A DNA stretch of 64,000 nucleotides from an uncultured Methanosarcinales archaeon (GTDB taxonomy: Archaea; Nanobdellota; Nanobdellia; Woesearchaeales; UBA10216): positions 427 through 64,426 of the forward strand of contig CAZDCW010000003.1 in assembly GCA_964504135.1 (NCBI GenBank), given 5' to 3'. This document shows, piece after piece, positions 4,931 to 64,000 of this stretch. The stretch's first letter is position 1. Every line of letters begins with the position of its first letter. Position numbers and translations under genes: made by a program. The notes beneath the pieces are model-generated. The model was not told where the DNA came from and ran no database searches. It worked only from the letters and a program-made list of their open reading frames with translations.

Positions 4931-5027
4931 TTATCGTAAATTGCGGTATTCAGTGCAAAGTTTACACGCAATTTACGAGATTAGAATTGCGCATATACAT
5001 CAACTAATCAGCGCAATTCTCTATATT
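4931..5027. repeat. family-1 intergenic palindromic element, copy 1 (11-bp IR cgtaaattgcg/cgcaatttacg plus hairpin gagattagaattgcgca-N18-tgcgcaattctctata)
   Basis: Lies between two convergent genes. Related copies at 18569..18619 and 56256..56397. Confidence 0.7.
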
Positions 5028-38676: not shown

Positions 38677-40165
38677 CCAGGAGATTCTTTTGAGGAAGTA
38701 TTTTGATGAGCAGTCGTTCATCAAGTCAGACATAGAGTCCTTCAATAACTTTATTGATGTTGAGCTTCCAAGGATTATTGCGGAGAACAGCGAGATTGAG
38801 CCGACGATAATTCCTCCAAATGTTGACGAGTTTAAGATAAAGTTTGACAAGGTCAGGGTTACCAAGCCGCAGATTATTGAGTCTGACGGAAGCGGTGAGA
38901 ATGAGGCCAAGTTTCCGATTGAGTCGAGGCTCAGGAAGATGACCTATGCTGCTCCTATGTACATTACTGTTAGCGCCCATATTAACGGCGCGCAGCGGGA
39001 ATCCTTTGAGACCCAGATTGGGAATCTGCCTATTATGCTGAAGTCCAAGCAATGCCACCTGTACAGGCTGTCGAGGGAGGAGTTGATTGCGAGGGGCGAG
39101 GACCCTGATGACCCTGGCGGGTACTTCATTATCAACGGCACTGAGAAGGTGCTGGTTAAGGTTGAGGACCTGGCCGCAAACAGGTTTATTACAGACACGG
39201 ATAGTTCAAGCACGAGCAGGTTTGTTGGCAAGATTTTCTCTGAGTACAGCTCTTATAAGATCCCTCATTTGATTGAGAGGCTGAGGGACGGCATCTTCTA
39301 TCTTACTTTCACCAGGGTTAGGAGGATGCCTGTGATTGTTATCATTAAGGCGCTCGGCCTTATTAAGGACGAGGAGATTAGCAGGTTTATCTCGGCTGAG
39401 AGGCATTTTGATGAGATAATCGTTAATCTGCTTGAGGCGGCTGACATAAAGACAGAGGAGGACGCAGTGGATTATCTTGCAAAGAGGTCTGGCATTACCC
39501 AGTCCAAGGAGATAAGGATTGAGAGGATGCGTGAGCTGCTTGACAAGTACCTTCTGCCCCATCTCGGCACGTCGCCGAGGGACAGGCCGGTTAAGGCGTA
39601 TAATCTTTGCAAGATGCTGAAGAAGCTCATCCTCACTTTCAGGGGCGAGCTGGAGCTGGATGACAAGGATAACTATGCGAACAAGCGGCTCAAGCTGAGC
39701 GGCGACTTGCTTGCAGACCTTATCAGGGTTAACATGAAGGTACTTATTGGCGACCTTCTTTACAACTTTCAGCGGATAGTCAAGCGTGGGAAGTTTCCTA
39801 CCATTAAGGTTATTATACGCGAAAAGCTTCTTACGTCAAGGATTTACAGTTCTATGGCTACAGGGACGTGGACAGGCGGCCGCAAGGGCATCAGCCAGAG
39901 GATTCAGAGGCTTAATTATCTGGAGACCATGTCCCATCTTCAGAGGGTTGTCAGTCCCCTGTCGGCGACGCAGGAGAATTTTGAGGCGAGGGAGTTGCAC
40001 AGCACGCATCTTGGGAGGCTCTGCCCGATTGAGACTCCTGAGGGTACTAATATCGGGCTCAAGAAGAACCTTGCCCTGCTCGCGACTGTCAGCCAGGATA
40101 CTCCTGAGGATGAGCTTTTGAAGGCGTTGAGGTCGTTTGGCATGAAGCCGGTTGCTTTGAGGTAG
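38669..40165 (+). CDS. rpoB2: DNA-directed RNA polymerase subunit B'' (N-terminal half of split RpoB)
   Basis: 498 aa with Rpb2 N-terminal lobe/protrusion/fork domains. Followed immediately by B'. Confidence 0.95.
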   Translation: MGSQEILLRKYFDEQSFIKSDIESFNNFIDVELPRIIAENSEIEPTIIPPNVDEFKIKFDKVRVTKPQIIESDGSGENEAKFPIESRLRKMTYAAPMYITVSAHINGAQRESFETQIGNLPIMLKSKQCHLYRLSREELIARGEDPDDPGGYFIINGTEKVLVKVEDLAANRFITDTDSSSTSRFVGKIFSEYSSYKIPHLIERLRDGIFYLTFTRVRRMPVIVIIKALGLIKDEEISRFISAERHFDEIIVNLLEAADIKTEEDAVDYLAKRSGITQSKEIRIERMRELLDKYLLPHLGTSPRDRPVKAYNLCKMLKKLILTFRGELELDDKDNYANKRLKLSGDLLADLIRVNMKVLIGDLLYNFQRIVKRGKFPTIKVIIREKLLTSRIYSSMATGTWTGGRKGISQRIQRLNYLETMSHLQRVVSPLSATQENFEARELHSTHLGRLCPIETPEGTNIGLKKNLALLATVSQDTPEDELLKALRSFGMKPVALR

Positions 40166-40166
40166 G

Positions 40167-41969: not shown

Positions 41970-41971
41970 AA

Positions 41972-44638: not shown

Positions 44639-44639
44639 G

Positions 44640-45779
44640 ATGGAGACTGAAGAGCTGCTGAAAAAATATGAGGACAGGCTCCCGTCAACTGTTATGGAGG
44701 AGGTTGTTGCCAATTTGCCGAAGAAGATTTCCGAGGCAAAGGCTAAGGAGATAATGGAAAGGGTTGAAAGCCAGTACAGGCAGATGCTCGCCGAGCCAGG
44801 CGAGAGCGTGGGCCTTATTTCTGCAGAGTCGATAGGAGAGCCCGGGACGCAAATGACGCTTAATACTTTTCACTTCGCAGGAGTAGCAGAAATGAACATC
44901 ACGACAGGCCTGCCAAGGATAATTGAGATTTTGGACGGGAGGAAGAACATTGCCACTCCCATGATGGAGATTTTCCTCAGGAAGCCTTATTCGCAGGGCA
45001 AGGACATAAAGAAGATAGCGCTTTATGTGAAGGAGACCAGGCTGGCCGACATATCGTCTGAAATCGTCTTGAACCTCGCCGAGTCCCGGATTGAGGTATC
45101 CCTTGATGATGAGAAGGCAAGGGAGCTCAACATTACAGAGGCGAATCTCCTTAAGGCGCTGAAGAACACCAACAAGAACCTGTCAGTTGAGGTTAAGAAG
45201 GGCGCTTTTATATTCAGGCTCAAGAGCAAGGAGGAAAACCCTAACGAGATATACAAGTACAAGGAAAAAATCAAGGACAGCTATATCAGGGGGGTTCGCG
45301 GAATCACACAGGTCCTTCCGGTGAAGAAGGATGGCGAGTTCATGATTATAACCTCAGGCAGCAACCTGAAGAAGATGCTTTCGCTTCCGTTCGTGGACGC
45401 TACAAGGACGACTACAAATGACATTTTTGAGATTGAGGAAGTGCTTGGCATTGAGGCGGCAAGGCAGGCGCTGATAAGCGAGGTGTTCAAGGTCATTGAG
45501 AACCAGGGGCTGAACGTTGACATCAGACATTTGATGCTGGTCGCTGACACAATGTGCTTCAACGGAAGCCTGAAGGGCATTACAAGGTATGGGGTTGTGA
45601 GGGAGAAGGCGAGCGTGCTTGCCAGGGCTTCTTTTGAGACGCCGATAAAGCACATAATAAGCGCCTCGCTTACAGGAGAGATTGACAGGCTCAACTCTGT
45701 GGTTGAAAACGTGATGCTTAACCAGCCTGTGCCGATAGGGACCGGCCTGCCAAAGCTGGTTATGAAGGGGCAGGGATGA
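44640..45779 (+). CDS. rpoA2: DNA-directed RNA polymerase subunit A''
   Basis: About 379 aa, the Rpb1 C-terminal trigger-loop region. I prefer the ATG at 44640 (METEELL), just past the rpoA1 stop. The track start is 44619. Confidence 0.9.
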
Positions 45780-50923: not shown

Positions 50924-51187
50924 TTATTCTTCAGGGTTGTAGACTTTGAGGCCTTCCTTGGCAGCGGCGATGTTAAGGTTTTTGTCCGCCGAAATAAATT
51001 CCATTTGTTCTGTGGCATTTGTCAAAGCAGAGTAAAGGTGAATTGCATCATTGACGGTTAAATGGTGCTTTATAATGTAATCAACGGCAAAGGTCATTGC
51101 CAATGAGGTTATTTCCGCCAGAATTATCAAATCGTTGTCAGTCAGGTCTCTTATGTCAGACGTGAACTCGCTTATCGCCTCAGACAC
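50924..51187 (-). CDS. PIN-domain (VapC-like) protein, C-terminal motifs intact, start codon non-canonical or N-terminus degenerate
   Basis: VNDAIHLYSAL and FISADKNLNIAAAKEGLKV match PIN motifs 3 and 4. The track start is a GTG. By my hand translation the frame stays open at least 70 codons upstream without an ATG. Confidence 0.35.
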   Translation of the reverse strand: MSEAISEFTSDIRDLTDNDLIILAEITSLAMTFAVDYIIKHHLTVNDAIHLYSALTNATEQMEFISADKNLNIAAAKEGLKVYNPEE

Positions 51188-51267
51188 TTCTTTCGAAGTG
51201 AGGCTTTTGATTCTTCCCAGCTTATCGAATGCAGATATTACCTCTCCTATGAGCAGTATTGAGGAGG

Positions 51268-51498
51268 CTAGTTTATTTGCATAAGCGTCCCGGATAATGT
51301 CGTTCCTGCCTTTTTGCTCGCCCTGGCAAGATTTCTCCTGACGTTTGCCTTTTCGCTCCCTGTTATATGGTACTTTAGGGCGAGCTGCCTGATTGCGTCC
51401 CTGACTACTTCAGACTGGGACTTGTACAGTCCTGTCCTTAGTATTTCGCGGGCCAGGCCCTGGAGTTCCTTTGTGACTTCAGCAGTAAGGGTTGCCAT
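51268..51498 (-). CDS. ribbon-helix-helix antitoxin (CopG/ParD-like)
   Basis: 76 aa. LYKSQSEVVRDAIRQL is the RHH beta-strand/helix signature. It sits directly upstream of the PIN-like ORF. Confidence 0.55.
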   Translation of the reverse strand: MATLTAEVTKELQGLAREILRTGLYKSQSEVVRDAIRQLALKYHITGSEKANVRRNLARASKKAGTTLSGTLMQIN

Positions 51499-51582
51499 TT
51501 TTTTTTCTAACAGCCTGCTGTTAGTTGCAAAATATAAACTTTGCGGTTTTATCTGGGCTAACTCAGAGTTTCAGTTCTCTTG

Positions 51583-51660
51583 CAGTACACGAAGAGTTAG
51601 CCTGCTACAAAGAGTTGACTACAAACCACCAACCATTAACTACACACAATTAACTGCCAC
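51583..51660. repeat. family-2 short form plus shared 3' extension (acaaagagtt...actacaaaccaccaaccattaacta)
   Basis: Matches 56222..56255 plus 56398..56425. Confidence 0.6.
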
Positions 51661-52013: not shown

Positions 52014-52673
52014 TTAGCGTGTGAATTTCCACCATATCATCTGCGCCACTATTGATATTCCGTCCATTACTGTGGTGCCCTTGTATTTGTCCACGTATAT
52101 CGTTTTTACAGGCACCTGCTGGAATTTTATCCTGTGCTTTCCTGTGAGGGCTATCATTTCTGACTCTACGCTGTAGTCTGTGGCCTTCCATCGTATCTTC
52201 TGGTAGGCTTCCTTTTTAAAGGCTCTGTATCCGCATTGCGTGTCGTTTATTCTCATGTGGAACAGCATCCTGACTGCTGTGCCTATGAACCAGTTCCCGA
52301 ATCTGAATACAAGGGGCATTTCTCCTCCAAGCCTTCTGTATCCGAATACCATGTCCGCACCTTCAAGTGCCTTGATGAAGTGCGGGATTTCCTCTGGGTC
52401 GTGCTGGGTGTCCGAGTCCAGCAATATGATTGCGTCAGCGCCTTGCATGACTGCGTAGTCGCAGCCTGTCTTGAGGGCTGCTCCCTTGCCGAGGTTTATT
52501 AGGTGCCTTAGCACCGCAACCCCTGCTTTTTGCGCCTCTTCTGCTGTTGCGTCCCTGCTTCCATCGTCAACTACTATTATCCGCCGCGGGTCTATCTGTT
52601 TTTTTGTCTTTATGATTACTTCTGTGATGTGCTTCTGCTCGTTGTAGGCCGGGATTACAGCGAATGCGTTCAT
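52014..52673 (-). CDS. family-2 glycosyltransferase (dolichyl-phosphate hexose synthase-like)
   Basis: VIPAYNE...IIVVDDGS.D.T, DxD (LDSDTQHD). 219 aa. 4-nt overlap with aglB. Confidence 0.8.
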   Translation of the reverse strand: MNAFAVIPAYNEQKHITEVIIKTKKQIDPRRIIVVDDGSRDATAEEAQKAGVAVLRHLINLGKGAALKTGCDYAVMQGADAIILLDSDTQHDPEEIPHFIKALEGADMVFGYRRLGGEMPLVFRFGNWFIGTAVRMLFHMRINDTQCGYRAFKKEAYQKIRWKATDYSVESEMIALTGKHRIKFQQVPVKTIYVDKYKGTTVMDGISIVAQMIWWKFTR

Positions 52674-55600
52674 CTTATCTTTTCTATCCTGAACCTGAAG
52701 AATAGCGTCTTGTTGCCCAGCGGGTGCTTGTCCGGCTCTGTCCCGTATGCCTTTTCCGGGCTTATCCTGGCGGTCTTTTCCTCGCCGGCCTTCATTCCAG
52801 TCATCTGCTCTTCAAGGCCAGGTATTATTTCTGATTTGCCCATTGTGAAGGTGAAGGGCGCTGAGTCTTCACCGAATGGCTGGTCTTTTGTTATGTTGCG
52901 GCTGTCCCAGTTGTATATTGAGCTGTCAAACACAGTCCCGTCCTCCAGGTATCCTATGTAGTTGAATGTCACGCTGTCCTGCGGCCCTACACTTTCCTTT
53001 GTTGTCAGCTCTGATTTTGTGTGCATCTCCCCGCCTTTCCAGTCCACTCTGTATACGTATATTTCCGCTCCTGTTATGCTTCTCTGGTATGTGAGGAGCT
53101 TGAAGTGCCTTAGGCTGTGGCCTTTCATGAAGAACATCCTTGTGAACATGCTTGCGTTCAGCTCTGGCGCTGCCATTACCATCCTGTAATTGTCGCCTTC
53201 GGGTATTATTGTCGCGGCCCAGTCTATGCCTACGTTTTCAGAGTGGGATTTCTGCTCAACCCCTTTTTCCGTAGCTATTGCCACCGCCCTCAGGTTCTTT
53301 GGCTCCTGGCCCTCAAGCAGGAGCACTGCGTCGTTTGCTGAGAAATTTATTGCAGGGACTATGTTCAGTCTCCTTCCACCGCCTGCGTCCAGGCCTATGG
53401 TGTCGCATATTCCTGTTTTTCCGTCGCAGTTCAGTATTTGTCCGTAGCTTGGCCAGGGGCTTATCCATGTGTTTCCCTGTGCGTCATTCATGGCCTGGAT
53501 GTCGTAGTAGGTTTGCTCTGCCTGTTCACTTGTGTAGTTGAGCTTGCTCTGCATTTCTGCTATTGCCTCTTCTGCGGGCTTTTCCCGCAGCCTGTTCCAT
53601 ATGTATGCCTTTTCAAAGTCCCATGAGCCGAAGTGCGCCCATACTCCTGATTTTCCTATCATGTCTTCTGATGCTATGAAGAAGGCTTCCGGAGGCTCGC
53701 AGTGTGTGTATTTTAGCACTGCCTCTGCCTGCCCGGCAGTCATCCCGTATTTCTGCCTGAGCTTTTTGCCTGCCGCCTCCCTGTCGTCCTTGAATACGCT
53801 GTAAAGTATGCCTATTGACATGAGGGTGTCGTTTCCGTTTGCCTTCTGGACTTCCTCGAATGCGTTGTTGCCCCCGCAGTCAAGCATCCTTAGTATGCCT
53901 ACAGCCATTTCCTCATCGTCAGTTTTTAGTATCTGCCCTACCCAGTGTGCCTGCGGGCTTCCCTGGGTTGTGCCGTCAAATGTCACAGGCCTTTCGGCGA
54001 GCGCCTTGAAGTGGTGCCCGAAGTCCCACCAGCTGGTTATTATCGCTGTCCTGTTTGAGTTGTCCCTTATTGCAGCCAGTGAGTTGTACCATGCGTCGTT
54101 TATTATTGGCACGTCCTGTTTTGCTATGCTTATAGAGACCGCCCATGCGTTGGATGGCACCATTACAAGGACAAGCAGCAGCGCGAATACGGTTACGGAT
54201 GCTATTGTCCGTTGGATTTTCAGGTCAGTTGTCAGCGAGTGCTCCAGCCTCTTGTGTATGAACCCTATGGCGACTCCGAAGGCTATTGCGAATGCAGGCA
54301 CGAGCAGCATTACAAACCTTATTCCCTTGGTGCTGGCATACATTGTCACTATGAACCATATTATCAGCAGCGCGGCCACTCTCATGTCTATTGGCTCGTG
54401 CATTATTCCGGCATAGAGTGTCCGGGCCAGTATTGGCAGGCTGAGGAGTATGAGGAACCATTCCTGCACAAGTTCGCCTCTCATCAGCAGGAGGATAAGC
54501 CAGTATGCTGCTGAGCCCAGTATGAACATCCATTCCTGCCAGTCCACCCTCTTCTTGGTCATGCTTATCATTATTCCCAGGAGGGCTGTGAAGAAGAATA
54601 CAGGGCCGCCCACGTTGTTCATTATGTCGTTGATGCCGCCCTCGTTTAGTTCTGCCACGGTTGTAAGCACGTTTGGGAAAAGGCTTTCCATGACAGGCGC
54701 CTTTATCCTGGTGAATGCCAGCGAGCCTATCGGGCTGAGTATGAAGGTGTCAAGGCCTGAAAGCAGGCTTACGAATATCCCGGAGAACAGTATGAACATT
54801 AAGGTTACTGTTAGCGCTGTTTTTACCTCATGGGTGAACAAATTCCCGATTCCTTTTGCAATCTGCTTTCTGTTTGCAAGGATTATGTAGCCGAAGTATA
54901 CTGCTGATGCTGCAAGCAGGAAGTTGTATATGAACCACCATCCTCCCCATATTCTTGAGAATAGGCCCATGCTCAGGCCTGCAAGGAAGGTCAGGGCAGT
55001 TTGCCATTTCAGGCTTTTGGACTCGATGGCCATGAGGAAGAGGAATGCGGTGAGCACAGAGAAGAACAGTACCCATGTGTCAGAGTCCCCATGTCCGAAG
55101 AGGCTTCTTGAAAGCGCGGATGGGTTGAGCGCCATCAGCAGGCCTGCAAAAAGCCCTCCTACATCTCCTGCTATTCTTCTGCAGATGAAGAACACTATTA
55201 CAGCCGCGAGGGCTGCTATTATTACAGGGTAAAGCATCTCCGCGTACATTAGTGTCATTCCCGGGTTGAATATCCTGAGAATCCTGTAGAATAGGGCTAT
55301 GGAGTATGGGTGGAAAGTATCTTCCGGCTCTACATATCTTCCTTCTGGCGCCAGCTGGAATGTGTCGTAGCTTCTCCCGTTTTTTATAGTGTCGCCGGGG
55401 TAGCCGTGGTCAACTATGTTTCTTGCGTACCTGAACCAGTAGTAGGGGTCTATGTCAGGCATGTATGCATTTCCCTGGTCGTCCAGGTAGAATGTTTTGA
55501 AGTATTCTGCTGTCTGCTGGACTTGCTGTTTGATGTTTGCTGACTGGCCTGCGTATTGCCCTGTCCTGAATGCGTATTCTCCTTTTTTCAGGGCCTCGTT

Positions 55601-56143
55601 GAAGTCCTTGTCTATGAGCTCGTTCTTCTGCCTGTCCGGAAGGTTCGGGTACTGTGCCAGGATTGACTGCTCGATGTCAGCCCTTAGGAATCCGTATGTG
55701 CTTTGCTTTGCCCAGTCTTCGGCGTACAGCATTTGGCCGGGAAGCATCCTTACATATGCGGCTGCCGCGGCTATTATTATGATGGCCGCCACAATGAGCA
55801 GCTGCCTGCTGTTTTTATGGAAGAATCCTGATATGGCTTGGGTGTCAAGGCTTAGCTCGTCCTCATCCTGCGGGGCTTTTTCACGGTGTGCCTTTGGGCC
55901 TTGCTTGAAGAGGCCTTTTAATTTTCCAAATGTTTCGCCTATGCTGACCTCATCTTCAGCATCTTCATGTGCTGCTTCATGCTTTTTGTGGTGTTCGTGC
56001 TCTGGCCGCTGTTCGTGCTGCTCTGCTTTCTCTTCCTTGTGATGTTCTTCCTTGCCTGGCTGCCCTTCCTTCTTTTTTCCGAATGGCCACATCTTGCCAA
56101 GGTCTATGTCGAGGTCGTCTTCCTTTTCATCCATTTTTCCCAA
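52670..56143 (-). CDS. aglB: archaeal oligosaccharyltransferase AglB (STT3) with N-terminal His/Glu-rich extension and C-terminal FKBP-type peptidyl-prolyl isomerase domain
   Basis: 1157 aa. About 13 TM helices and the WWDFGHHF (WWDYG) motif. The extracytoplasmic C-terminal domain ends in a clear FKBP module (VTFNYIGYLEDGTVFDSS ... PFTFTMGKSEIIPGLEEQMTGMKAGE...ISPEKAYG). Confidence 0.85.
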   Translation of the reverse strand: MGKMDEKEDDLDIDLGKMWPFGKKKEGQPGKEEHHKEEKAEQHEQRPEHEHHKKHEAAHEDAEDEVSIGETFGKLKGLFKQGPKAHREKAPQDEDELSLDTQAISGFFHKNSRQLLIVAAIIIIAAAAAYVRMLPGQMLYAEDWAKQSTYGFLRADIEQSILAQYPNLPDRQKNELIDKDFNEALKKGEYAFRTGQYAGQSANIKQQVQQTAEYFKTFYLDDQGNAYMPDIDPYYWFRYARNIVDHGYPGDTIKNGRSYDTFQLAPEGRYVEPEDTFHPYSIALFYRILRIFNPGMTLMYAEMLYPVIIAALAAVIVFFICRRIAGDVGGLFAGLLMALNPSALSRSLFGHGDSDTWVLFFSVLTAFLFLMAIESKSLKWQTALTFLAGLSMGLFSRIWGGWWFIYNFLLAASAVYFGYIILANRKQIAKGIGNLFTHEVKTALTVTLMFILFSGIFVSLLSGLDTFILSPIGSLAFTRIKAPVMESLFPNVLTTVAELNEGGINDIMNNVGGPVFFFTALLGIMISMTKKRVDWQEWMFILGSAAYWLILLLMRGELVQEWFLILLSLPILARTLYAGIMHEPIDMRVAALLIIWFIVTMYASTKGIRFVMLLVPAFAIAFGVAIGFIHKRLEHSLTTDLKIQRTIASVTVFALLLVLVMVPSNAWAVSISIAKQDVPIINDAWYNSLAAIRDNSNRTAIITSWWDFGHHFKALAERPVTFDGTTQGSPQAHWVGQILKTDDEEMAVGILRMLDCGGNNAFEEVQKANGNDTLMSIGILYSVFKDDREAAGKKLRQKYGMTAGQAEAVLKYTHCEPPEAFFIASEDMIGKSGVWAHFGSWDFEKAYIWNRLREKPAEEAIAEMQSKLNYTSEQAEQTYYDIQAMNDAQGNTWISPWPSYGQILNCDGKTGICDTIGLDAGGGRRLNIVPAINFSANDAVLLLEGQEPKNLRAVAIATEKGVEQKSHSENVGIDWAATIIPEGDNYRMVMAAPELNASMFTRMFFMKGHSLRHFKLLTYQRSITGAEIYVYRVDWKGGEMHTKSELTTKESVGPQDSVTFNYIGYLEDGTVFDSSIYNWDSRNITKDQPFGEDSAPFTFTMGKSEIIPGLEEQMTGMKAGEEKTARISPEKAYGTEPDKHPLGNKTLFFRFRIEKIR

Positions 56144-56221: not shown

Positions 56222-56247
56222 CAGTACACGAAGAGTTAGCCTGCTAC
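56222..56247. repeat. family-2 short form, third copy; immediately followed by the family-1 long element
   Basis: cagtacacgaagagttagcctgctac, then acaaagagtt, then the family-1 element, then actacaaaccaccaaccactaacta. Confidence 0.6.
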
Positions 56248-56255
56248 AAAGAGTT

Positions 56256-56419: not shown

Positions 56420-57523
56420 CTAAATAATAAGCCTCGCGAATCCCAGCAGTTCTGGAGAACCGGCCAGCAGTTTCGCCATGAATCTGGCTGGGAAGTCCCT
56501 GTCGTGTTCTTCCAGTATTTTCCTGTTGCGCTCCTTCTGGAATATCCCGACCAGCTTGTTGTAATCGTAATCTGTGAACTTGTCCATGGCTTTCCTCATC
56601 ATCAGGTGCAGCCAAAGGTCTCTTGCAAGCCTGCTTCTCCACAGCCTGCTGTAGTTCTTCCTGTGCGTGATTGATTCGGCGAGCGCTTTTGCCGCGATGT
56701 GGCTCTGCATTATCCCGCCGAGTGTTGTCGCCTTCACCATCGTGGCTGCATCGCCAACCGTGTAAACATTCCCGTTCTGTGTTTTTACATTCGGGTCGTA
56801 TAGCGGTATGGGCCCTGCCTGTCTTGCAAGTATCAGTCCCGCATAGTCCTCGCCAAGCACTTTCCTGCAGAAGCCTTCAAAGTATTTCTGCGGCTCGTTC
56901 AGCGTGGCAACTCCAATCCTCACCCTGTCCTTGGATTCAGGCACAGTCCATGCTATGCCCTGCGTGCCGGGGTAAAAGTCAATCATGTTGTCATTTTCCC
57001 TTTTTGCGGTTGCCTGCAGCCCGAGGTATAGCTTTCTTTTTCCGTAAAGGCCGTTGTTCTTTGCAACCCTGCTTGCCGGCCCGTCAGCTCCGATTAGCAT
57101 TTTTGTTTCAGTCTCGTATTCTTCGCCGCTTTTCAGGTCTTTAACCATCACCTTTTCCATGTCGCCGGAGGGCCGGTTTCCCATGTATACGTGGTTTAGC
57201 TTGTATTCAGCCCCGCTCCGCTGGGCCATTTCCGCAACGTGCTGGTCAAGGAGGTGCCTGTTGAATATCTTGTTGGGATGCCTGAAGTTTATTTTTACAT
57301 TCTCCCCGTTTGGCGAGTATATCCTTGCGCTCTCAACAGTGTTGGCGATTAGCTCTTTTTTGGGCTTAATCAGCGTGTCGAAGTGCGAGGTTATTATGCC
57401 TGTGCATGCCACCGGCAGGCCTACCGTGGAATTTGCCTCGTACACCTCCACGTCAAACCCTTCGCCCGCCAGAAGGTAGGCTGCGTAATTCCCCGCAGCC
57501 CCTGCGCCGATTATGGTTATCAT
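56420..57523 (-). CDS. geranylgeranyl reductase (digeranylgeranylglycerophospholipid reductase, FAD-dependent)
   Basis: MITIIGAGAAGNYAAYLLA, a GxGxxG FAD motif, with a Cys in VACTG. I prefer the start at the internal Met. Confidence 0.85.
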   Translation of the reverse strand: MITIIGAGAAGNYAAYLLAGEGFDVEVYEANSTVGLPVACTGIITSHFDTLIKPKKELIANTVESARIYSPNGENVKINFRHPNKIFNRHLLDQHVAEMAQRSGAEYKLNHVYMGNRPSGDMEKVMVKDLKSGEEYETETKMLIGADGPASRVAKNNGLYGKRKLYLGLQATAKRENDNMIDFYPGTQGIAWTVPESKDRVRIGVATLNEPQKYFEGFCRKVLGEDYAGLILARQAGPIPLYDPNVKTQNGNVYTVGDAATMVKATTLGGIMQSHIAAKALAESITHRKNYSRLWRSRLARDLWLHLMMRKAMDKFTDYDYNKLVGIFQKERNRKILEEHDRDFPARFMAKLLAGSPELLGFARLII

Positions 57524-57626
57524 CTTTCCCTGTATCTGGCATCTGCTTTTATTTTTTTCCCGGCAAATCGGGAAATCCGCAAAATCCGGTCGAAACCTTT
57601 TTAGCATCCTGAAGCTTCCCAGCCTG

Positions 57627-58595
57627 ATGCTAAGGGATGAGGTTCTTAAGCTGGATCCCGGCAGGGTAGCCCTCTGGGATTTTCTCAGGTCAGGGAGCCT
57701 TGAGCGGGGCGATACTATTAGGATTGGCGGCGCATCTTACTCGATGTTAACTGGAGGGTCTGCCAGTTGTGGGCTTGGCACTGCTAACCTTTTCCTCTAT
57801 CATTCGCCTGACATCAACCGTAATTACAGCACTTTGGATGAGGTGGTTAGGGACCCTGCGCTTCTTGACGCGTTGGACCCTGACCCTGATAAGCCTAGCA
57901 TCCGCAATCGGGTTGCCATTACCTACAATTACTGGCATGCCTTCTTTGATGCGGTTAAAGGGCTTCCTGGGGGGTTTTCAGCAGTGGAGCTGGACAGGCT
58001 TCAGTCAGCCGGTTACATGGTGCCTTTTTTGCAGCAGCTGGCCCTTTCAGGCCGCATGGGCACGCCTGAGCTTGAGGCCAGGCAGGGCGTGTGGCCGCTG
58101 GCGTATCATTCGCACAGCTCTGATTCAATAATTTTTTCCCCTCGCTACTCCTCGCTTGTTCAATTATACGCTGGCCAGAGGACTGTCTCTGACATCCATG
58201 GCCTCAGCAGGATTATTTTTGGCAGCAGTGATGCCGAGCAGTGGAGGAGGCTTTATGTCAGGAATCACCAGGAGTTTATGGCTTACCTTGGCGTTGGCTG
58301 CCTGGATGCTGCGCCTGGGCCGCGGCTTTTTAGTGGGGGCTGCCTTCCGGGCATGGCCTTTTTTGCAGCCATCACAGCCATAGGCATAGCGGCCAGCAGC
58401 GGTTTTCTGCTTGGCAGGGGTCCGGCTGCGCCAGCAGCAACGCCTGTTCCGGTTGCCGAGGAGCCTGCTGCCACACCGGCCGCAGTAATCCCCCCGACTA
58501 CTCTAACCCCCACTCTCTATATTCCAAGTGTGCTTAATGGCACATCGTCAGGCACGGCTTATGTTCCGGTGATAGTCAGCGGAAGGCCTGACTGA
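57627..58595 (+). CDS. paralog 1 of an unrecognised single-TM membrane protein family (MLRDEV...ALWDFL N-domain, Pro/Thr-rich C-tail)
   Basis: The N-terminal block MLRDEVLKLDPGRVALWDFLRS is shared with the ORFs at 58623 and 60667. It is followed by a soluble domain of about 250 aa, one TM helix, and a PT-rich tail with an NGT sequon. The track ORF begins 38 codons upstream, at 57513. Confidence 0.5.
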   Translation: MLRDEVLKLDPGRVALWDFLRSGSLERGDTIRIGGASYSMLTGGSASCGLGTANLFLYHSPDINRNYSTLDEVVRDPALLDALDPDPDKPSIRNRVAITYNYWHAFFDAVKGLPGGFSAVELDRLQSAGYMVPFLQQLALSGRMGTPELEARQGVWPLAYHSHSSDSIIFSPRYSSLVQLYAGQRTVSDIHGLSRIIFGSSDAEQWRRLYVRNHQEFMAYLGVGCLDAAPGPRLFSGGCLPGMAFFAAITAIGIAASSGFLLGRGPAAPAATPVPVAEEPAATPAAVIPPTTLTPTLYIPSVLNGTSSGTAYVPVIVSGRPD

Positions 58596-58622
58596 AAAAT
58601 CAGCATTAGTAGCCATTATCTA

Positions 58623-59831
58623 ATGGTTACAAACACAAGTTTTTTAAAAGCTCATGACTTCCCTGGGCTGATGCTAAGGAATGAAGTAAGTGCAAAGCTG
58701 GATGATGCCAGGCTCGGACTCTGGGATTTTCTCACGTCGGCTGGCCCTGACAGACCTCTGGCTGGACTTACCATTTCTGTAGGCGGCATCAACTATAAAA
58801 TTGACCCTGCAGCAGCTGGAGGTATGGACCCTTTACATGCTTCTCTGTTCCTTACTAGCCCTAAAGGAGACCACAGGTATGAGGGCTTGGATGATCTGAT
58901 TTTTGATATGGGTGGTTTTGAAGTTGGGGATAAGCCTGATGAACAGGCGCCCCTTCTCCGCCGCCTTGAGGCAACTAGGTGGTTCTGGGGCAGCTTTAGT
59001 GTCGCAGTGGCAAACCTGCCAAATGAATTTCCTCCGGGTACGGTAGACAGCCTTCACTCAGGGCATTACCTTAAGCCTTTCCTGCAGCAGTTGACTGCGG
59101 AGAATCACATCAGGAGGGCGCTTGACTCTAATCGCGGCAGAACTCCATTGGAGTACGCATGGCACAGCATTGGTTCATTTGATTCGCCTTCTTCGATAAC
59201 TTTTACACAGTCAAACAGGGATCAGCTTGTTATAGAAAGCATCCATGGCCTTACAGGGATAAGGTTTAAGGATGCCGGCGCTGAGGCGCTGAGGCGCCAT
59301 TACCTCAGAATCCATACGGATTTCATGAACTACCTTGGGGTTCCATGCGTTGCTGCTCCGAGGGATATTGGCGGAATTCTGGAATCTGGTTTGGCTGCCG
59401 CTCTCCGAATGCAACATAAGCCCCGCCCAGTGGAGCCTTTTCTTGCTGCCTTTCTTATAGGGGTGGTTGGCTATGCGTCATATGCCTGTCTCCCCCAGCC
59501 TCCTTCAGGCTCTTCGCTTGCCGCAGCCACGCCTACTCCGGCAGTCTCAGCCACGCCTATGGCTGCAACACAGGTAGCCGCTTCAACCCCGGTGCCTGTT
59601 TCAACGCCTCAGGCTGTTGCTCCTCTGGTTCCCGGGGTTCTTGGAAGGGATTATCATCTCGGCCTTCCGGTGGTTCCTTATGGAGAGCAAACCAGCCGCA
59701 GGTATTCAGTGAATGCGCCAATAGTCCCGAGTGGAAATCTGCCTGGGCTCCCGACGCCTGCTGCTTCGCCGGCTCCGAGGGCTGGGCAAGGCTTTCTGCC
59801 TGTTGTGCCGGCAAGCTACACTTCAAAGTGA
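58623..59831 (+). CDS. paralog 2 of the same family
   Basis: MLRNEVSAKLDDARLGLWDFLTS, conserved internal blocks (YLKPFLQQL; HGLTGIRF...RRHYL..H.DFMNYLGV.C), a TM helix, and a P/T/A-rich tail. The start may be the internal Met at 58671. Confidence 0.5.
   Translation: MVTNTSFLKAHDFPGLMLRNEVSAKLDDARLGLWDFLTSAGPDRPLAGLTISVGGINYKIDPAAAGGMDPLHASLFLTSPKGDHRYEGLDDLIFDMGGFEVGDKPDEQAPLLRRLEATRWFWGSFSVAVANLPNEFPPGTVDSLHSGHYLKPFLQQLTAENHIRRALDSNRGRTPLEYAWHSIGSFDSPSSITFTQSNRDQLVIESIHGLTGIRFKDAGAEALRRHYLRIHTDFMNYLGVPCVAAPRDIGGILESGLAAALRMQHKPRPVEPFLAAFLIGVVGYASYACLPQPPSGSSLAAATPTPAVSATPMAATQVAASTPVPVSTPQAVAPLVPGVLGRDYHLGLPVVPYGEQTSRRYSVNAPIVPSGNLPGLPTPAASPAPRAGQGFLPVVPASYTSK
59494..59831 (+). repeat. about 338-bp segment duplicated nearly identically at 61466..61803 (3' ends of paralogs 2 and 3)
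   Basis: Nucleotide identity runs from the cccagcctccttcaggctc block to the stop codon, with 3 substitutions near the 5' edge. The flanks diverge immediately after the stop. Confidence 0.85.
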
Positions 59832-60054
59832 GCTTAGAACCGGCTTCGCGTGGTTATAGCAAATCACGTTAATAATCGGAACTTTGTTCCGCTCAAATAA
59901 GTGATTTGCTTATTAGTAAATAACCTTGCAATACTTTTTTAATATACGAAAATTAAGGTTATTTACTATAGTTGGCGGAATCCAACTTGGTGAAGTTTGA
60001 TTTCCACGCAACGCGTCGCAAAAGTTTTTTAAATCCTGCGACATTCGCCTTTGG

Positions 60055-60573
60055 GTGAATAATGCAGGAAAATTTTTTCTCGGCACAGTTGCCGTTGCTT
60101 ATGCCGTGCTTAACATCATGTGCGGGATTGAGGTGGTTAGTCTTAGGCGTGAGGTTGATGCGCAGAGGGCGTCTTCAGCCACAAATGCACAGGTTAAAAA
60201 TTTGTCCGATTACGTATCAGGCTTGCCCGGCAGGCTATCAGATTCCGAGAGGGCAGCAGTTGAAAGAGAAACAAGAATCCGGGATTATCTTTCAGGCCGC
60301 ATTGAAGGCCTGAGCACTAGGGTTGACGGACTCGAAAGATGGAAGAGTGCCACTGAATATGGCGCGAACAAGGTTGAAACACTGTGGAATCTCAGGGATG
60401 TACAGCGCGGGCAGATTGAAGATTTGAGGCGCGATCTTGCTGCAGTGAGGAGTTTATACAATGCGCAGGGAAGTAAGAATGAGTCGTTTTACAACAGTAT
60501 AACTAATTTGGAGAGGAAGCTTGCAGAACTCTCAGGAATTCCCAATCCCGACCCTGAAGTGCAGGGCAGGTAG
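60055..60573 (+). CDS. N-terminally membrane-anchored coiled-coil protein
   Basis: 172 aa with a TM helix at residues about 8-28 and then heptad-like charged repeats. Confidence 0.4.
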   Translation: MNNAGKFFLGTVAVAYAVLNIMCGIEVVSLRREVDAQRASSATNAQVKNLSDYVSGLPGRLSDSERAAVERETRIRDYLSGRIEGLSTRVDGLERWKSATEYGANKVETLWNLRDVQRGQIEDLRRDLAAVRSLYNAQGSKNESFYNSITNLERKLAELSGIPNPDPEVQGR

Positions 60574-60666
60574 TCCTGCTTTAACATGCATTTTCACTGA
60601 TTTTTTCCTGGAAAACCGCAAAGCAAAAGCAAAACCTTTTTACAACGAATCAGATTCCTCATTTTA

Positions 60667-61803
60667 ATGCTAAGGGATGAAGTTGTTGGAAAGCTGGATC
60701 CCTCCAAGGTTGCCCTGTGGGGTTTTCTTCGCTCTATTGGACCTGGCGAGCCATTGTCAGGCGAGGCTGTTAACAGGAGTATTAATGTCAGGGGCGTAGA
60801 TTACATGATAGAATCCGCCAGTGGAAGGTCCTTGGACATCGGCTCGGCTGGCATCTCTTTGCATAATTCTGCGGGGCATGCCCTCAACTATGATACGCTG
60901 GATGCGGTTATGGAGGATTATGAGCTCACTGCTTCATTTGGGAATCAGGACGCGCAGCAGACGGCAGCCCTTCTCAGCCGCATGGAGCAGACTTTGCTAT
61001 TCTGGAAGGCTTTTGCTTCTGAACTGAGGGAGATGCCCGCAAAGTTTTCTGCGGCTGAATTGGACGGCCTTCATTCCAGGCGTTATATGGCTGCGTTCAG
61101 GCAGCAGCTTATACCTTCAGGAAGAGTTATCAGGAAGGGTTCGCTTGATGCCAAGCAGGATAGACAGCCGCTGGAATACTGTTGGGATACGTATGATTCT
61201 ATAACCTTTGTAAGGCCAGGCTCTCCGGGTGATCATAATGCGCAGATTGTGGTGGAAGGTGTCCACGCTCTGCGCGGGATTATTTTTAACGATCCGCAGG
61301 CAGAGGATTTAAGGCGTCTTTATGTGGCAAATCATATTGACCTGATGGCCTATCTTGGCGTGAAATGTGCAGTCGGTGCCAGGCAGCCTGGCAGCCTCTT
61401 TCGGTATGCCTTGGCTGCCGGGGGGCTCGTTGTCCTGCTGGGTTACAGTTCCCTGACCTTCCTCACCCAGCCTCCTTCAGGCTCCTCGTTTGCCGCAGCC
61501 ACGCCTACTCCGGCAGTCTCAGCCACGCCTATGGCTGCAACACAGGTAGCCGCTTCAACCCCGGTGCCTGTTTCAACGCCTCAGGCTGTTGCTCCTCTGG
61601 TTCCCGGGGTTCTTGGAAGGGATTATCATCTCGGCCTTCCGGTGGTTCCTTATGGAGAGCAAACCAGCCGCAGGTATTCAGTGAATGCGCCAATAGTCCC
61701 GAGTGGAAATCTGCCTGGGCTCCCGACGCCTGCTGCTTCGCCGGCTCCGAGGGCTGGGCAAGGCTTTCTGCCTGTTGTGCCGGCAAGCTACACTTCAAAG
61801 TGA
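60667..61803 (+). CDS. paralog 3 of the same family
   Basis: MLRDEVVGKLDPSKVALWGFLRS. The C-terminal roughly 112 aa are identical to those of paralog 2. Confidence 0.5.
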   Translation: MLRDEVVGKLDPSKVALWGFLRSIGPGEPLSGEAVNRSINVRGVDYMIESASGRSLDIGSAGISLHNSAGHALNYDTLDAVMEDYELTASFGNQDAQQTAALLSRMEQTLLFWKAFASELREMPAKFSAAELDGLHSRRYMAAFRQQLIPSGRVIRKGSLDAKQDRQPLEYCWDTYDSITFVRPGSPGDHNAQIVVEGVHALRGIIFNDPQAEDLRRLYVANHIDLMAYLGVKCAVGARQPGSLFRYALAAGGLVVLLGYSSLTFLTQPPSGSSFAAATPTPAVSATPMAATQVAASTPVPVSTPQAVAPLVPGVLGRDYHLGLPVVPYGEQTSRRYSVNAPIVPSGNLPGLPTPAASPAPRAGQGFLPVVPASYTSK

Positions 61804-61860
61804 AATGGCGCATTATATAATCCTTAAAGTCAGTTTTTTATGCTGTGGCCGCTTACATGA

Positions 61861-62727
61861 TTGTTGATGGGCAGGTTTTTTTCAGCAGTGCTTGGGCTTT
61901 CGGCTGCACTGGCCGTTGGCGCTGTTCTGTATAATTCAGATGTTGACAGGAGGAATTATCGCAGGGAGTTCATGGATGCAGCGGCAGGCCATGCCTCTGT
62001 CCTGTCCTCAAACGATTCTGCCTTGCAGAGTGATATTTCCGCAATTGCAAAGGAGGTCAGGCAGCTTAGGTCTTCCACAGAGCTTCAGTTAAGTTCGATT
62101 CAGGGGGTTTACACCAGCATTTCAAGGCGGCTTGAGAATGTTGAGTCAGGCGTTGTGTCTGTCGGGAAGGATACCTCTGCGATGAGGACCTCAGTCTCCG
62201 GCTCTTCAGAGGAGGTTGTGCTCAGGAATAACCAGATTCTTGCCGAGTTCAGGGACTTGCGCAAGGACTATGCCCTCATTATTGAGCTGCTGAATTCCAG
62301 CCCGCAGGGTCCTTTGTTTCATCCGCAGTACGGCTGGCTGGGAAGTAAGGAAAATTTTGGCAGCGCGGTTCCGGATTACTGGACAACCGACAGGTCTGTT
62401 CTGCTGCGCTTTGCACCTCAGATTAGGGCTTCCATTTCGGCGCCCCTTTCAGAGGTTTACCAGGACAGACCCCAGTACTCCTTTCTTGTGGCCAGGAATG
62501 CGGTTGGAAGCCTTGATGAGGCCATTGACGGCCTGGACAGTAATGGCGAGTTCATGGACCGCGCCTCTACGCTGCTTGTTTATTCAGTCCAGCCTGCCGG
62601 AGCCAGCCGTCAGTTGTATCAGTTGTCTTTGGTTCTTGCAAACACAGAAAGCCATCCTCTTGGCGCCCTGAGAAGCATCCCGATTTCAGGCCAGTTGGCC
62701 GGGGAATTGGCAAAGCCTTCGTCTTAG
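61861..62727 (+). CDS. N-terminally membrane-anchored coiled-coil protein with C-terminal globular domain
   Basis: 288 aa with a TM helix at residues 6-24, a coiled-coil region, and a C-terminal domain of about 130 aa. Confidence 0.4.
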   Translation: MLMGRFFSAVLGLSAALAVGAVLYNSDVDRRNYRREFMDAAAGHASVLSSNDSALQSDISAIAKEVRQLRSSTELQLSSIQGVYTSISRRLENVESGVVSVGKDTSAMRTSVSGSSEEVVLRNNQILAEFRDLRKDYALIIELLNSSPQGPLFHPQYGWLGSKENFGSAVPDYWTTDRSVLLRFAPQIRASISAPLSEVYQDRPQYSFLVARNAVGSLDEAIDGLDSNGEFMDRASTLLVYSVQPAGASRQLYQLSLVLANTESHPLGALRSIPISGQLAGELAKPSS

Positions 62728-62870
62728 CATGATGACGAATTCCAAACAGTAAGTTTATATAAATCCTTATAATTGTAATTATTTCATAATGGTGACATTG
62801 CAATAAACTTTTTATATTAGCCCGGTTTCAGGCAGCAGACTGATGTTTAACAACCTTAGGGGGTGTAGCT

Positions 62871-63650
62871 ATGACAAATAGTCCAAATGCTTCTAGACGG
62901 GATTTTGTGAGGGGAGGAGGCCTTGCAGGGCTTGCTGCTGCACTTCACCCGGGTGTATTGGCTTCTGCATTAACAGGCCCTTCAGCAGGTTCGTCAGCCC
63001 TGTCAGCTTCCTCTGGGACTGTGGGCCCATTAGAGCGTTTTCTGGCCTATAGGTCTTTGTCTTATCCTCAGCCAGATACCAAGCGTCCGGATTATGTTGT
63101 TCCGAAGGGTGCTTCAGCAGCCCCTGGTCTGTACATAGTTCAGGCTCCTCTGTTTGAAGGTTCTAAACATTCTGCTCAGGAAAGTCAAAGGAGGCCCTGG
63201 AGCACTCAGAATGGTTGGCTTGATACGAGGACGATAAAGCAAGTTCTGCAGCAGTACGGTGCGGTTTTGGACCTAGAACAACTAAAGGCTGAAATTGGAG
63301 CTTTATTGACTGTAGAACTTGCCGACAGGCTGTATGTGTCTGAAATACGTGCCTTAACCGAGTTTGCCAGCAATTCTCATCGCGATTTGGGAGTAGCGAC
63401 CAATGCTGCTGAAAAGCACTGGGAATTTAATGGCGCGGCGTTTGACGGCGTGCTTGGCCCTGGTAATTATGAGGCTGTTGTGTTGCAGGGTTACGTTGAC
63501 GGACCGTATTGTTTTGTCAAGATTAAGGCCGAGGCTCCTGGCTCTTCATTGGGCGGAGTTGCATATGCCTTTGCAATGACCCGTCCAGTGGCTCTTGAGT
63601 TGCAGGATAGGGTTAACCAGGTTAGAAGGCAGTATGATCTGCCTCGCTGA
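62871..63650 (+). CDS. Tat-signal secreted protein, unknown function
   Basis: Twin-arginine motif SRRDFVRGGGLAGLAAAL in the first 30 residues. A strong SD (agggggtg) lies 6 nt upstream. Confidence 0.5.
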   Translation: MTNSPNASRRDFVRGGGLAGLAAALHPGVLASALTGPSAGSSALSASSGTVGPLERFLAYRSLSYPQPDTKRPDYVVPKGASAAPGLYIVQAPLFEGSKHSAQESQRRPWSTQNGWLDTRTIKQVLQQYGAVLDLEQLKAEIGALLTVELADRLYVSEIRALTEFASNSHRDLGVATNAAEKHWEFNGAAFDGVLGPGNYEAVVLQGYVDGPYCFVKIKAEAPGSSLGGVAYAFAMTRPVALELQDRVNQVRRQYDLPR

Positions 63651-63654
63651 AAAA

Positions 63655-64000
63655 TGGATTTTTCCAGGGCTTCAAGAATCTTGTTTGTTATTCTTGTAAA
63701 TTTCATGCTGCTTGCAACTCCTTTGGCTGTTGCTGATGACGAAGGCGGAGAGGACAGCGGTGGCGATGATGGCGGTGACTGGGGGGATGGTGGTGATGAA
63801 GATTCAGGTGATGTAGGCGATTACCCTGACCCTGATTATCCTGAGCCTGATACTCCTGTTCCTGATTATCCTGAGCCTGATACTCCTGTTCCTGATTATC
63901 CTGAGCCTGACACTCCTACTCCAGACGTCCCTGCCCCTGATACTCCTGTCCCGCCTCCAACCCCAACTCCAGTAACCCCCACTCCTCCAGGCCCTGAGCC
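63655..64000 (+). CDS. secreted acidic protein with Pro-rich tandem repeats (3' end truncated by the window)
   Basis: ATG at 63655. The signal peptide is FVILVNFMLLATPLAVA. Downstream are a D/E/G-rich block and PDYPEPDTPV repeats. It is not in the track because no stop falls before the window end. Confidence 0.45.
63831..63920 (+). repeat. 3 tandem copies of a 30-nt unit (cctgattatcctgagcctgatactcctgtt) inside the last CDS
   Basis: Two of the three copies are exact and one has three substitutions. They encode PDYPEPDTPV. Confidence 0.8.

Follow-up and report, generated by a model that had tools for sequence, protein, structure and literature searches.

Attachment to host cells is presumed to be essential for DPANN archaea, and to our knowledge the proteins that build and anchor their adhesive surface are almost entirely unknown. 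The closest described systems are of several kinds. Archaeal S-layer glycoproteins (Halobacterium, Haloferax) possess a signal peptide, a huge ectodomain, a Thr/Pro-rich O-glycosylated membrane-proximal stalk and a C-terminal anchor. The RsgI-type membrane anti-sigma factors of Clostridia consist of a cytoplasmic N-terminal domain of ~50 aa, a single transmembrane (TM) helix, an extracellular Pro/Thr-rich linker and an external C-terminal globular domain; archaea have no sigma factors. Giant He_PIG/Big_9/cadherin-like adhesins occur in DPANN/CPR-type organisms. In Nanoarchaeota, hypothetical cell-surface proteins diversify rapidly, far faster than the rest of the genome, as judged from SNP densities (PMC6142677).

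The window analyzed here, the whole stretch of 64,000 nt, had been attributed in a preliminary description to a small-genome archaeon, in agreement with its origin from Woesearchaeota (DPANN). It contains three paralogous genes, P1, P2 and P3, which form a block with two genes encoding coiled-coil proteins, cc172 and cc288 (Table 1). Judged from their sequences, P1-P3 belong to a very narrowly distributed, previously undescribed membrane-protein family of groundwater Woesearchaeota.

Table 1. Features of the P1-P3 locus and its neighbours in the window.
Feature	Position	Strand	Description
AglB (STT3) with C-terminal FKBP domain	52670..56143	-	conserved neighbour; 94% aa identity to L002
Geranylgeranyl-reductase-like flavoprotein	56420..57526	-	divergent neighbour; left edge of variable slot
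Five-gene block (P1, P2, cc172, P3, cc288)	57529..62694	+	absent from L002
TATA-like box AAACCTTTTTAGC	57593..57605	+	about 27 nt upstream of P1 ATG; read from sequence
Paralog 1 (P1)	57627..58595	+	322 aa; N-domain aa 1-233; own profile member P0003
P1 TM helix	aa 234-252, nt 58326-58382	+	followed by 70-aa Pro/Thr/Ala-rich tail with one NGT sequon at residue 304
Paralog 2 (P2)	58671..59831	+	386 aa; N-domain, TM, 112-aa tail; P0001
P2 TM helix	aa 256-274, nt 59436-59492	+	
P2 tail-coding segment	59490..59831	+	339/342 nt identical to P3 61462..61803
Hairpin	59858..59910	+	-20.9 kcal/mol, z -5.7; in AT-rich 223-nt spacer after P2
cc172	60055..60573	+	172 aa; N-terminal TM anchor aa 7-25, heptad-periodic helical region
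Paralog 3 (P3)	60667..61803	+	378 aa; N-domain, TM, 112-aa tail; P0002
P3 TM helix	aa 248-266, nt 61408-61464	+	
P3 tail-coding segment	61462..61803	+	partner of P2 segment 59490..59831
cc288	61861..62727	+	288 aa; N-terminal TM anchor aa 6-24, heptad-periodic region, ~140-aa C-terminal part
174-nt leader	62695..62867	+	91% identical to L002
Tat-like protein	62871..63650	+	259 aa; SRRDFVR at aa 8-14, then mildly hydrophobic stretch
Acidic Pro-repeat ORF, N-terminus	63654..64000	+	signal or anchor, acidic block, PDYPEPDTPV repeats; 115 aa within the window, runs off it

The N-domain of ~235 aa is common to all three paralogs at 37-41% identity with 60 invariant columns, and the paralogs scored an E value of about 1e-114 against their common profile, a likeness far above chance. 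The preliminary description had reported three paralogs with a common N-terminal block, and these were recovered together with all of its ORFs on the + strand; of the two starts that it offered for P2, 58623 or 58671, the latter is the public gene call. The shared blocks MLR[DN]EV..KLD, ELD.L[QH]S..YM.PF[LR]QQL and HGL..I.F...LRR.Y...H..M.YLGV.C were essentially right, but its (Y/W)xxWxxF block reduces to an invariant W..F. One TM segment was detected in each paralog, followed by the long Pro/Thr/Ala-rich tail that had been noted (P+T+S+A 54% in each case). The sequon in the P1 tail is present as well, but a single sequon is no evidence of glycosylation.

Profile searches among 5.8 billion clustered proteins returned the paralogs as the sole matches. 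An HMMER scan of 1.84 billion representatives added only P0009 (E 8e-6, one full-length stretch), which aligned to the family profile with a probability of 97.3% (hhalign), and a third genome contributed the member L003:8194-9861. P0009 and the L003 member come from related Woesearchaeota MAGs with one family gene apiece, and their stalks end in an external C-terminal globular domain of ~130-150 aa. The family is thus known from three MAGs and five members. GTDB genomes, JGI metagenomes (scanned twice) and IMG/VR gave no relatives. Word-indexed searches yielded nothing new with the five-sequence profile or with the P0009 N-domain alone, the latter not recovering the query itself, and the five members diverge too much for their alignment to serve in pattern scanning. 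These genes are not mentioned in the source paper of the MAGs (PMC7906910).

The N-domain had been placed outside known families, and this held: it displayed no match in Pfam-A, NCBIfam, PHROGs, PADLOC or PDB, and none to an enzyme. Pfam scanning of the paralogs gave only ThrE_2 at E 0.15 over the TM region of P2 and no family for P1 or P3. WD40 matches in the representative search were spurious, since they covered only profile positions ~7-56 and drew their significance from 6-10 summed target repeats; the N-domain segment concerned was modelled as helices with pLDDT ~90 (AF2). AF2 models of the N-domain reached pLDDT 45 with three sequences and 73 when P0009 was added. The fold search that had been suggested as a check was run on the latter, medium-confidence model and gave no fold match, which is weak evidence for a new fold because the model was built from only four sequences. 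The residues that stay invariant in all five members are largely hydrophobic; the others are Q, E, R and two Y. The lack of conserved catalytic-type residues favours a structural or binding role over an enzymatic one.

Two topologies had been considered for these proteins. As had been stated, P1-P3 have no signal peptide or N-terminal hydrophobic segment. In four of the five members (P2, P3, P0009 and the L003 protein) two to three K/R precede the TM helix and none or one follows it, and P1 is ambiguous with one on each side. By the positive-inside rule only, this distribution favours a cytoplasmic N-domain and an external tail, which was one of the two options. P1-P3 resemble the stalks of S-layer glycoproteins in the Pro/Thr/Ala-rich segment directly outside the membrane anchor. 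They differ in that the large domain is N-terminal and predicted to be cytoplasmic, and in that the external part is short. The proximity of the family genes to AglB and glycosyltransferase genes was counted as a further likeness.

The P2 and P3 N-domains share only 38% protein identity, yet the last 342 nt of the two genes are 99% identical at the DNA level. This identity, which the preliminary description does not mention, begins where the TM helix ends and extends precisely to the stop codon, pointing to a recent event of gene conversion or segmental duplication.

Comparison with related genomes placed the paralogs in a variable slot. In the closest relative, L002, whose flanks match at 89-96% protein and ~91% DNA identity, only ~125 nt separate the reductase start from the conserved leader. 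The true start of the reductase is probably MITIIGAG at 57526, not 57607. L002 has a Tat-like gene and an adhesin but no family member, so the adhesin as such does not require the family. In L002 the 3' end of cc288 survives as a weak remnant, suggesting deletion there and not insertion here. The P0009 and L003 genes lie between the divergent reductase/AglB side and a He_PIG adhesin, 20-34 nt upstream of the latter. The conserved order, seen in three genomes from one environment, is family member, giant He_PIG/cadherin-like adhesin, ~440-aa CARDB/NEW3 protein and membrane protein. In L005 the slot contains a protein that is not homologous but similarly built, with a coiled coil, TM, collagen repeat, PT-rich region and C-domain. 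On the sequence evidence, this slot at the head of the adhesin locus is fast-changing and dispensable, and its genes are accessory.

The cell-surface link drawn in the preliminary description is supported by conserved synteny with the giant He_PIG/Big_9/cadherin-like adhesin and the CARDB/NEW3 protein in related genomes. The locus adjoins AglB, GT2 and the lipid reductase, as had been stated, but it is divergent from them on the other strand. A multi-gene system found no such support. No relatives of cc172, cc288 or the Tat-like protein were detectable by BLAST in any related locus, the two other family members are single genes, and L002 has no five-gene block. Isolated homologs without coiled-coil or Tat neighbours, which had been named in advance as evidence against such a system, are largely what the P0009 and L003 loci display. 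A conserved system is thus not supported.

We propose, with a probability of roughly 0.45, that P1-P3 are lineage-restricted accessory bitopic envelope proteins, predicted to act as a membrane tether or relay for a glycosylated adhesin layer. The alpha/beta N-domain would reside in the cytoplasm, a single TM helix (N-in, C-out) would cross the membrane, and an extended stalk rich in Pro/Thr/Ala would lie outside. The family takes the leading, variable position in a conserved surface-protein locus, divergent from the reductase, AglB and GT2. This slot was probably expanded here by tandem duplication of a unit of family member and N-anchored coiled-coil protein, the external tails of P2 and P3 appear to have been homogenised recently, and the sister genome appears to have lost the five-gene block; such changes suggest that the genes are accessory and fast-evolving. 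The stalk, probably glycosylated, may extend into the surface layer that would hold an adhesin without a C-terminal anchor; the adhesins of L002, L003 and L007 have a C-terminus without a TM segment. The cytoplasmic domain may provide attachment or oligomerisation inside. P1-P3 lack the C-terminal globular domain of their single-copy relatives and therefore may not do the same job.

The bitopic layout is also that of RsgI, and the family could instead comprise transmembrane signalling or regulatory proteins in which the external stalk (the C-domain in the relatives) would sense contact or a ligand and the cytoplasmic N-domain would hold back or set free a regulator that controls the adhesin genes downstream. 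The order of cytoplasmic N-domain, TM helix, PT-rich linker and, in the relatives, external C-domain is the same, a family member lies directly upstream of an adhesin gene, and each gene has a promoter-like box. The likeness stops at the layout, since there is no sequence or profile similarity to RsgI or to any anti-sigma or regulator family (Pfam, NCBIfam), the family N-domain has ~235 aa against ~50, and an external globular domain is found only in P0009 and the L003 protein, leaving the window paralogs with tails of 70-112 aa and no external sensor domain. No regulator gene is adjacent, and sigma factors are absent from archaea. Signalling of this kind is thus unlikely. A more far-reaching form of the tether reading would make the family a DPANN-specific 'inside-out' coupling device, in which a new-fold cytoplasmic domain is joined through a glycosylated stalk to the giant adhesin layer; the device would anchor or gate the apparatus by which an episymbiotic archaeon attaches to its host. 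We regard this as distinctly unlikely; if it were true, the copy-number expansion and tail homogenisation would be adaptations to particular hosts.

An origin as cargo of a mobile or virus-derived island, or as a defence/exclusion module beside the reductase gene and unrelated to the adhesin, is improbable. Two more distant genomes carry homologs in this very slot of the chromosome, and the L002 remnant points to deletion. Neither an integrase or transposase nor direct repeats on the flanks were seen, PHROG and PADLOC gave no match other than ZorA at chance level (E 0.004), and no relatives turned up in IMG/VR. In favour of such an origin are the presence or absence of the block between genomes ~91% identical in the flanks, the orphan status of all five block proteins, and a GC3 below that of housekeeping genes (0.41-0.585 versus 0.54-0.66). 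Low GC3 would likewise be expected if P1-P3 were duplicates that are decaying or have no function, ORFs specific to the lineage and subject to relaxed selection within a Pro-rich region prone to recombination, and the dispensability of the genes in the sister genome and the extremely narrow distribution agree with this. It is nevertheless the least probable explanation, because all three ORFs are intact, the 60 invariant positions persist at about 40% identity, the domain is kept full length in genomes whose reductase is only 66-69% identical, and promoter-like boxes are conserved upstream of each copy.

The locus is a concrete candidate for adhesive surface architecture, with a family that, wherever it occurs, heads the giant-adhesin operon beside N-glycosylation genes and with natural presence/absence variants between sister genomes. 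It displays fast turnover by the gain or loss of an entire block, by exchange of coding sequence within flanks that stay conserved, and by tail gene conversion. P1-P3 and the nanoarchaeal surface proteins (PMC6142677) are both DPANN surface-associated and fast-varying; they belong to different phyla without homology, and the variation described here was seen by genome comparison. The significance is limited, since the family comes from only three MAGs and any function is putative. Orphan, lineage-specific envelope genes are moreover common in DPANN genomes.

TATA-like boxes similar to that of P1 were found upstream of P2, P3 and cc172 (60024-60036 for the last), suggesting that each of these genes may be transcribed from a separate archaeal promoter with little or no leader. 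The two TM-anchored coiled-coil proteins described earlier were borne out by an N-terminal TM segment and heptad periodicity in cc172 and cc288; the 3.5-residue hydrophobic periodicity exceeded that of shuffles at p about 0.04 and 0.015, respectively, in a crude test. Neither matched a family, and only sub-threshold matches to coiled-coil families were obtained (Pfam). They aligned colinearly at 25% identity (E 5.7), too weak a match to establish paralogy, and have similar N-termini (GKFF in cc172, xxGRFF in cc288). Archaeal class III signal peptides carry a [KR]-[GA] cleavage motif directly before the hydrophobic stretch. A type IV pilin-like nature was rejected, since MNNAGKFF and MLMGRFF read G-[KR]-FF with the charge after Gly and the [KR]-[GA] motif is absent.

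The leader downstream of the block holds a hairpin (TTCGTC..GACGAA), two TATA-like boxes and a GGGGGTG ribosome-binding-like site, and its homology to L002 ends at the ATG of the Tat-like gene. The product of this gene had been called a Tat substrate. Its SRRDFVR motif is followed by an h-region (GGLAGLAAALHPGVLASAL, mean KD 1.41), but it scored 17.9 bits against Pfam TAT_signal (cut-off 22.7) and had no NCBIfam Tat-signal match at E <=0.1, so the Tat assignment is only weakly supported. It is the positional counterpart of a 220-aa L002 protein (SRRHF), to which it has no significant similarity despite the same position, the SRRxF start and the 91%-identical leader. A single domain common to the external C-domains of P0009 and the L003 protein, the Tat-like proteins, the cc288 C-terminal part and a 385-aa L007 protein was rejected at the sequence level (Smith-Waterman versus shuffles, z <=3.3).

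The stop codon of the Tat-like gene lies 3 nt before the adhesin start. The secreted acidic Pro-repeat protein reported from 63655 is present as an ORF with its repeats and starts at 63654. By position and N-terminal architecture (signal, acidic block, Pro-rich repeats) it matches the 1828-aa He_PIG/Big_9/cadherin-like adhesin of L002, which has 14 He_PIG repeats; P1-P3, in contrast to such adhesins, contain no Ig-like or cadherin-like domain. The PDYPEPDTPV repeats correspond to a 30-nt tandem repeat with a 15-nt sub-period at 63795-63959.

All seven open reading frames of the preliminary description were found on the plus strand of the window. Three of them encode the paralogs P1, P2 and P3, whose N-terminal domains (N-domains, about 235 aa) displayed 37-41% identity and 60 invariant columns in an alignment of the three. 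Judged from the sequences, this resemblance is far beyond chance, and their own profile matched each of them with an E-value of about 1e-114. Each paralog carries a single hydrophobic segment followed by a tail of 70-112 aa, of which Pro, Thr, Ser and Ala make up 54%.

Features of the paralog locus and their positions in the window
Feature	Position	Strand	Characteristics
P1	57627-58595	+	paralog; hydrophobic segment aa 234-252
P2	58671-59831	+	paralog; hydrophobic segment aa 256-274
cc172	60055-60573	+	N-terminal TM helix
P3	60667-61803	+	paralog; hydrophobic segment aa 248-266
cc288	61861-62727	+	N-terminal TM helix
Tat259 (Tat-like protein)	62871-63650	+	SRRDFVR motif
Acidic Pro-repeat ORF	63654 to beyond window end	+	signal or anchor, acidic block, PDYPEPDTPV repeats

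The searches showed that the paralogs form a genuine protein family, not described before and of extremely narrow distribution, with a bitopic architecture. The N-domain matched nothing in Pfam, NCBIfam, PHROGs or PADLOC and no sequence in PDB, and when 5.8 billion clusters were searched with a word index, P1-P3 alone came back. Each paralog is on record once, on one NCBI contig of 82,405 bp, with exact copies in two SRA assemblies. When 1.84 billion representatives were scanned exhaustively with HMMER, one credible addition emerged (E 8e-6), the single-copy protein P0009 (611 aa) from a related Woesearchaeota MAG, which matched in one stretch over profile positions 15-226 with an hhalign probability of 97.3%. 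The other HMMER matches were WD40-repeat proteins, covering only profile positions ~7-56 and with E-values derived from summing 6-10 repeats; they were judged spurious because these positions were modelled as helices. A single-copy member from a third genome, L003:8194-9861 (549 aa), was tied in via P0009 (pairwise BLASTP 3e-8), with which it has the motif YF[RK]R.LMQMN.LG in common; its direct matches to P2 and to the profile were both weak. No further members emerged when GTDB genomes, JGI metagenomes and IMG/VR were scanned. The combined searches therefore gave five known members, and the family is distributed over three related MAGs.

The N-domain represents a new family and perhaps a new fold as well. 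AlphaFold reached a pLDDT of 45 from the three sequences, and an alpha/beta model of medium confidence with P0009 added (pLDDT 73, pTM 0.75). Foldseek searches with the N-domain model found no convincing neighbour in PDB (best E 0.11, TM <=0.21) or in BFVD (best E 0.038). With so shallow an underlying alignment, this lack of a neighbour is suggestive of a new fold and not proof of one.

The window has genes for a split RpoB, RpoA', RpoA'', GT2, DUF2304, an aldo-keto reductase (AKR), a geranylgeranyl-reductase-like flavoprotein (hereafter the reductase) and an AglB/STT3-FKBP fusion, and is therefore archaeal. In the RNA polymerase operon (38669-45779, plus strand) the split rpoB (498 aa + 600 aa) is followed by rpoA' and rpoA'', which fits an archaeal, DPANN-type assignment. 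A search of GTDB genomes with the reductase returned five loci, all from Candidatus Woesearchaeota and three of them from 'NC_groundwater' MAGs; in the closest, L002 (JACPTG010000001.1), the reductase was 91% identical. In the AglB/STT3 oligosaccharyltransferase (52670-56143, minus strand) the FKBP peptidyl-prolyl isomerase domain is C-terminal (aa 1050-1150), and this fusion recurs at L002, L003, L005 and L007, all related Woesearchaeota loci. The reductase ORF as mechanically listed (56420-57607, minus strand, 395 aa) has a 27-aa N-terminal extension. Its homologs begin at MITIIGAG (57526), where DNA homology to L002 also stops, and the true reductase-P1 intergenic region is therefore ~100 nt.

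Genomic context is the most informative evidence on the family. P0009 lies on JACPTE010000021.1, the contig of the reductase match L004, in a neighbourhood like that of the window: AglB-FKBP, GT2, DUF2304, AKR, reductase, a 385-aa orphan, P0009 and, after a gap of 34 nt, a He_PIG/Big_9 adhesin, followed by a 430-aa CARDB/NEW3/FixG_C protein and a 482-aa membrane protein. L003:8194-9861 is divergent from the reductase, and a large adhesin-like gene begins 20 nt downstream of it, followed by the same genes of ~440 and ~390 aa. In the more distant genome L005 (reductase 50% identical), the slot is occupied by a non-homologous bitopic protein of analogous design (4442-6121, minus strand; 560 aa), arranged as coiled-coil N-part, TM helix, collagen triple-helix repeat, PT-rich segment and C-domain; adhesin-like genes and a CARDB protein of ~437 aa again lie downstream. 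The synteny of L003, L004 and L005 thus indicates that a slot for a bitopic stalk protein heading an adhesin locus is conserved and that its occupant changes. The position of the family before a giant adhesin and beside N-glycosylation genes is conserved. By position and design, the acidic Pro-repeat ORF of the window corresponds to the N-terminus of the 1828-aa adhesin of L002 (14 He_PIG repeats). The collagen repeat of the L005 protein (Pfam Collagen, E 6e-9) lies directly outside the TM helix and makes a collagen-like stalk of a kind unusual in archaea.

All five members lack a hydrophobic segment at the N-terminus. In four of them, 2-3 Lys/Arg fall within the 15 residues that precede the TM helix and 0-1 follow it; P1 is ambiguous by the positive-inside rule. 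From this charge asymmetry and the rule we infer an N-in/C-out topology for the family, with a cytoplasmic N-domain and an external PT-rich tail. In P0009 and L003:8194-9861 the stalk is longer, and a globular domain lies at the C-terminus on the outer side of the membrane. The adhesins of L002, L003 and L007 have no C-terminal anchor. The favoured reading is that the family may act as a structural tether or relay between the cytoplasm and the glycosylated surface or adhesin layer. Alternatively, these proteins could be receptors or anti-sigma-like regulators, decaying duplicates, or the cargo of a mobile island. The residues invariant across all five members are mainly hydrophobic, with one Q, one E, one R and two Y, and no catalytic-looking constellation is found among them. 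As an object, the protein is of a familiar type: a bitopic envelope protein that is restricted to one lineage, evolves fast and is encoded at a variable surface locus of a DPANN archaeon. Similar rapid diversification is reported for surface proteins of Nanoarchaeota (PMC6142677).

The N-domains of P2 and P3 are just 38% identical at the protein level, unlike their tails: 339 of the terminal 342 nt are identical, from the end of the TM helix exactly to the stop codon, a feature missed in the preliminary description. This indicates a recent gene conversion or segmental duplication limited to the external tail. The last ~50 aa of the P2 and P3 tails include the conserved motif L.P.V..G...Y..P..SG. 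TATA-like boxes (AAACCTTTTTA) located ~25-30 nt upstream of P1, P2, P3 and cc172 suggest that these are transcribed gene by gene. The mobile-island alternative concerns the whole block from P1 to cc288. No integrase, transposase or flanking repeats were found around it in the window, and searches including IMG/VR found no viral relatives of its genes. The GC3 of the cluster genes (57627-63650) was 0.41-0.585, against 0.54-0.66 for housekeeping genes of the window (RNA polymerase, AglB and others), with similar overall GC.

The family is accessory, as comparison with L002 showed, and it is expanded and tail-homogenised in the window genome. The flanks of the two loci are 89-96% identical in protein and ~91% in DNA. 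Homology halts at window 57528, the true reductase start, and restarts at 62695; the intervening 5.17 kb (P1, P2, cc172, P3 and cc288) is matched by about 125 nt in L002. L002 also retains ~35 nt with weak similarity to the cc288 3' end, stop codon position included. This remnant, taken with the occurrence of family members in L003 and L004, which are more distant, favours loss of the block in L002 rather than insertion in the window genome. A 174-nt leader then follows (62695-62867; L002 9733-9906), 91% identical right up to the ATG and containing a hairpin, two TATA-like boxes and a GGGGGTG site. Beyond it the two reading frames show no relationship (259 aa in the window, 220 aa in L002), both opening with SRRxF and ending 1-3 nt before the adhesin start. 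The pattern is one of cassette-like replacement, in which a coding sequence has been exchanged while its flanks stayed conserved.

Among the neighbours, cc172 and cc288, TM-anchored proteins with heptad periodicity, both start with G[KR]FF. In a crude test their 3.5-residue hydrophobic periodicity exceeded that of shuffles (p about 0.04 and 0.015, respectively), and matches to coiled-coil families were sub-threshold. Similarity between the two was not significant (E 5.7), and nothing significantly similar to either was detected in the related loci. The proposal that paralogs, coiled-coil proteins and Tat protein form one cell-surface system did not hold, as the parts were not found to co-occur, a check that the preliminary description itself had proposed. 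The gene order P2-cc172, P3-cc288 suggests that a two-gene unit of paralog and coiled-coil protein may have been duplicated. Tat259, claimed as a Tat substrate, combines a good SRRDFVR motif with an h-region of mild hydrophobicity, but its Pfam score of 17.9 lies below the 22.7-bit cut-off.

The AT-rich 223-nt spacer between P2 and cc172 contains a strong hairpin (59858-59910; 10-bp outer and 6-bp inner stem, -20.9 kcal/mol, z -5.7 vs shuffles), a candidate terminator-like or regulatory element. An exact 34-nt repeat, CAGTACACGAAGAGTTAGCCTGCTACAAAGAGTT, occurs at 51583-51616 and 56222-56255 (chance expectation none), each copy just 3' of a minus-strand gene (DUF2304 and the reductase). It had no significant RNA fold and no Rfam match, and a ~95-nt version lies between reductase and AglB in L002. 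Two small minus-strand ORFs (50924-51566; 87 and 76 aa) had no Pfam match; on visual inspection they look like the C-terminal part of a VapC and like an RHH antitoxin. As the stretch has no counterpart in L002, the interval from AKR to DUF2304 is a second variable slot.
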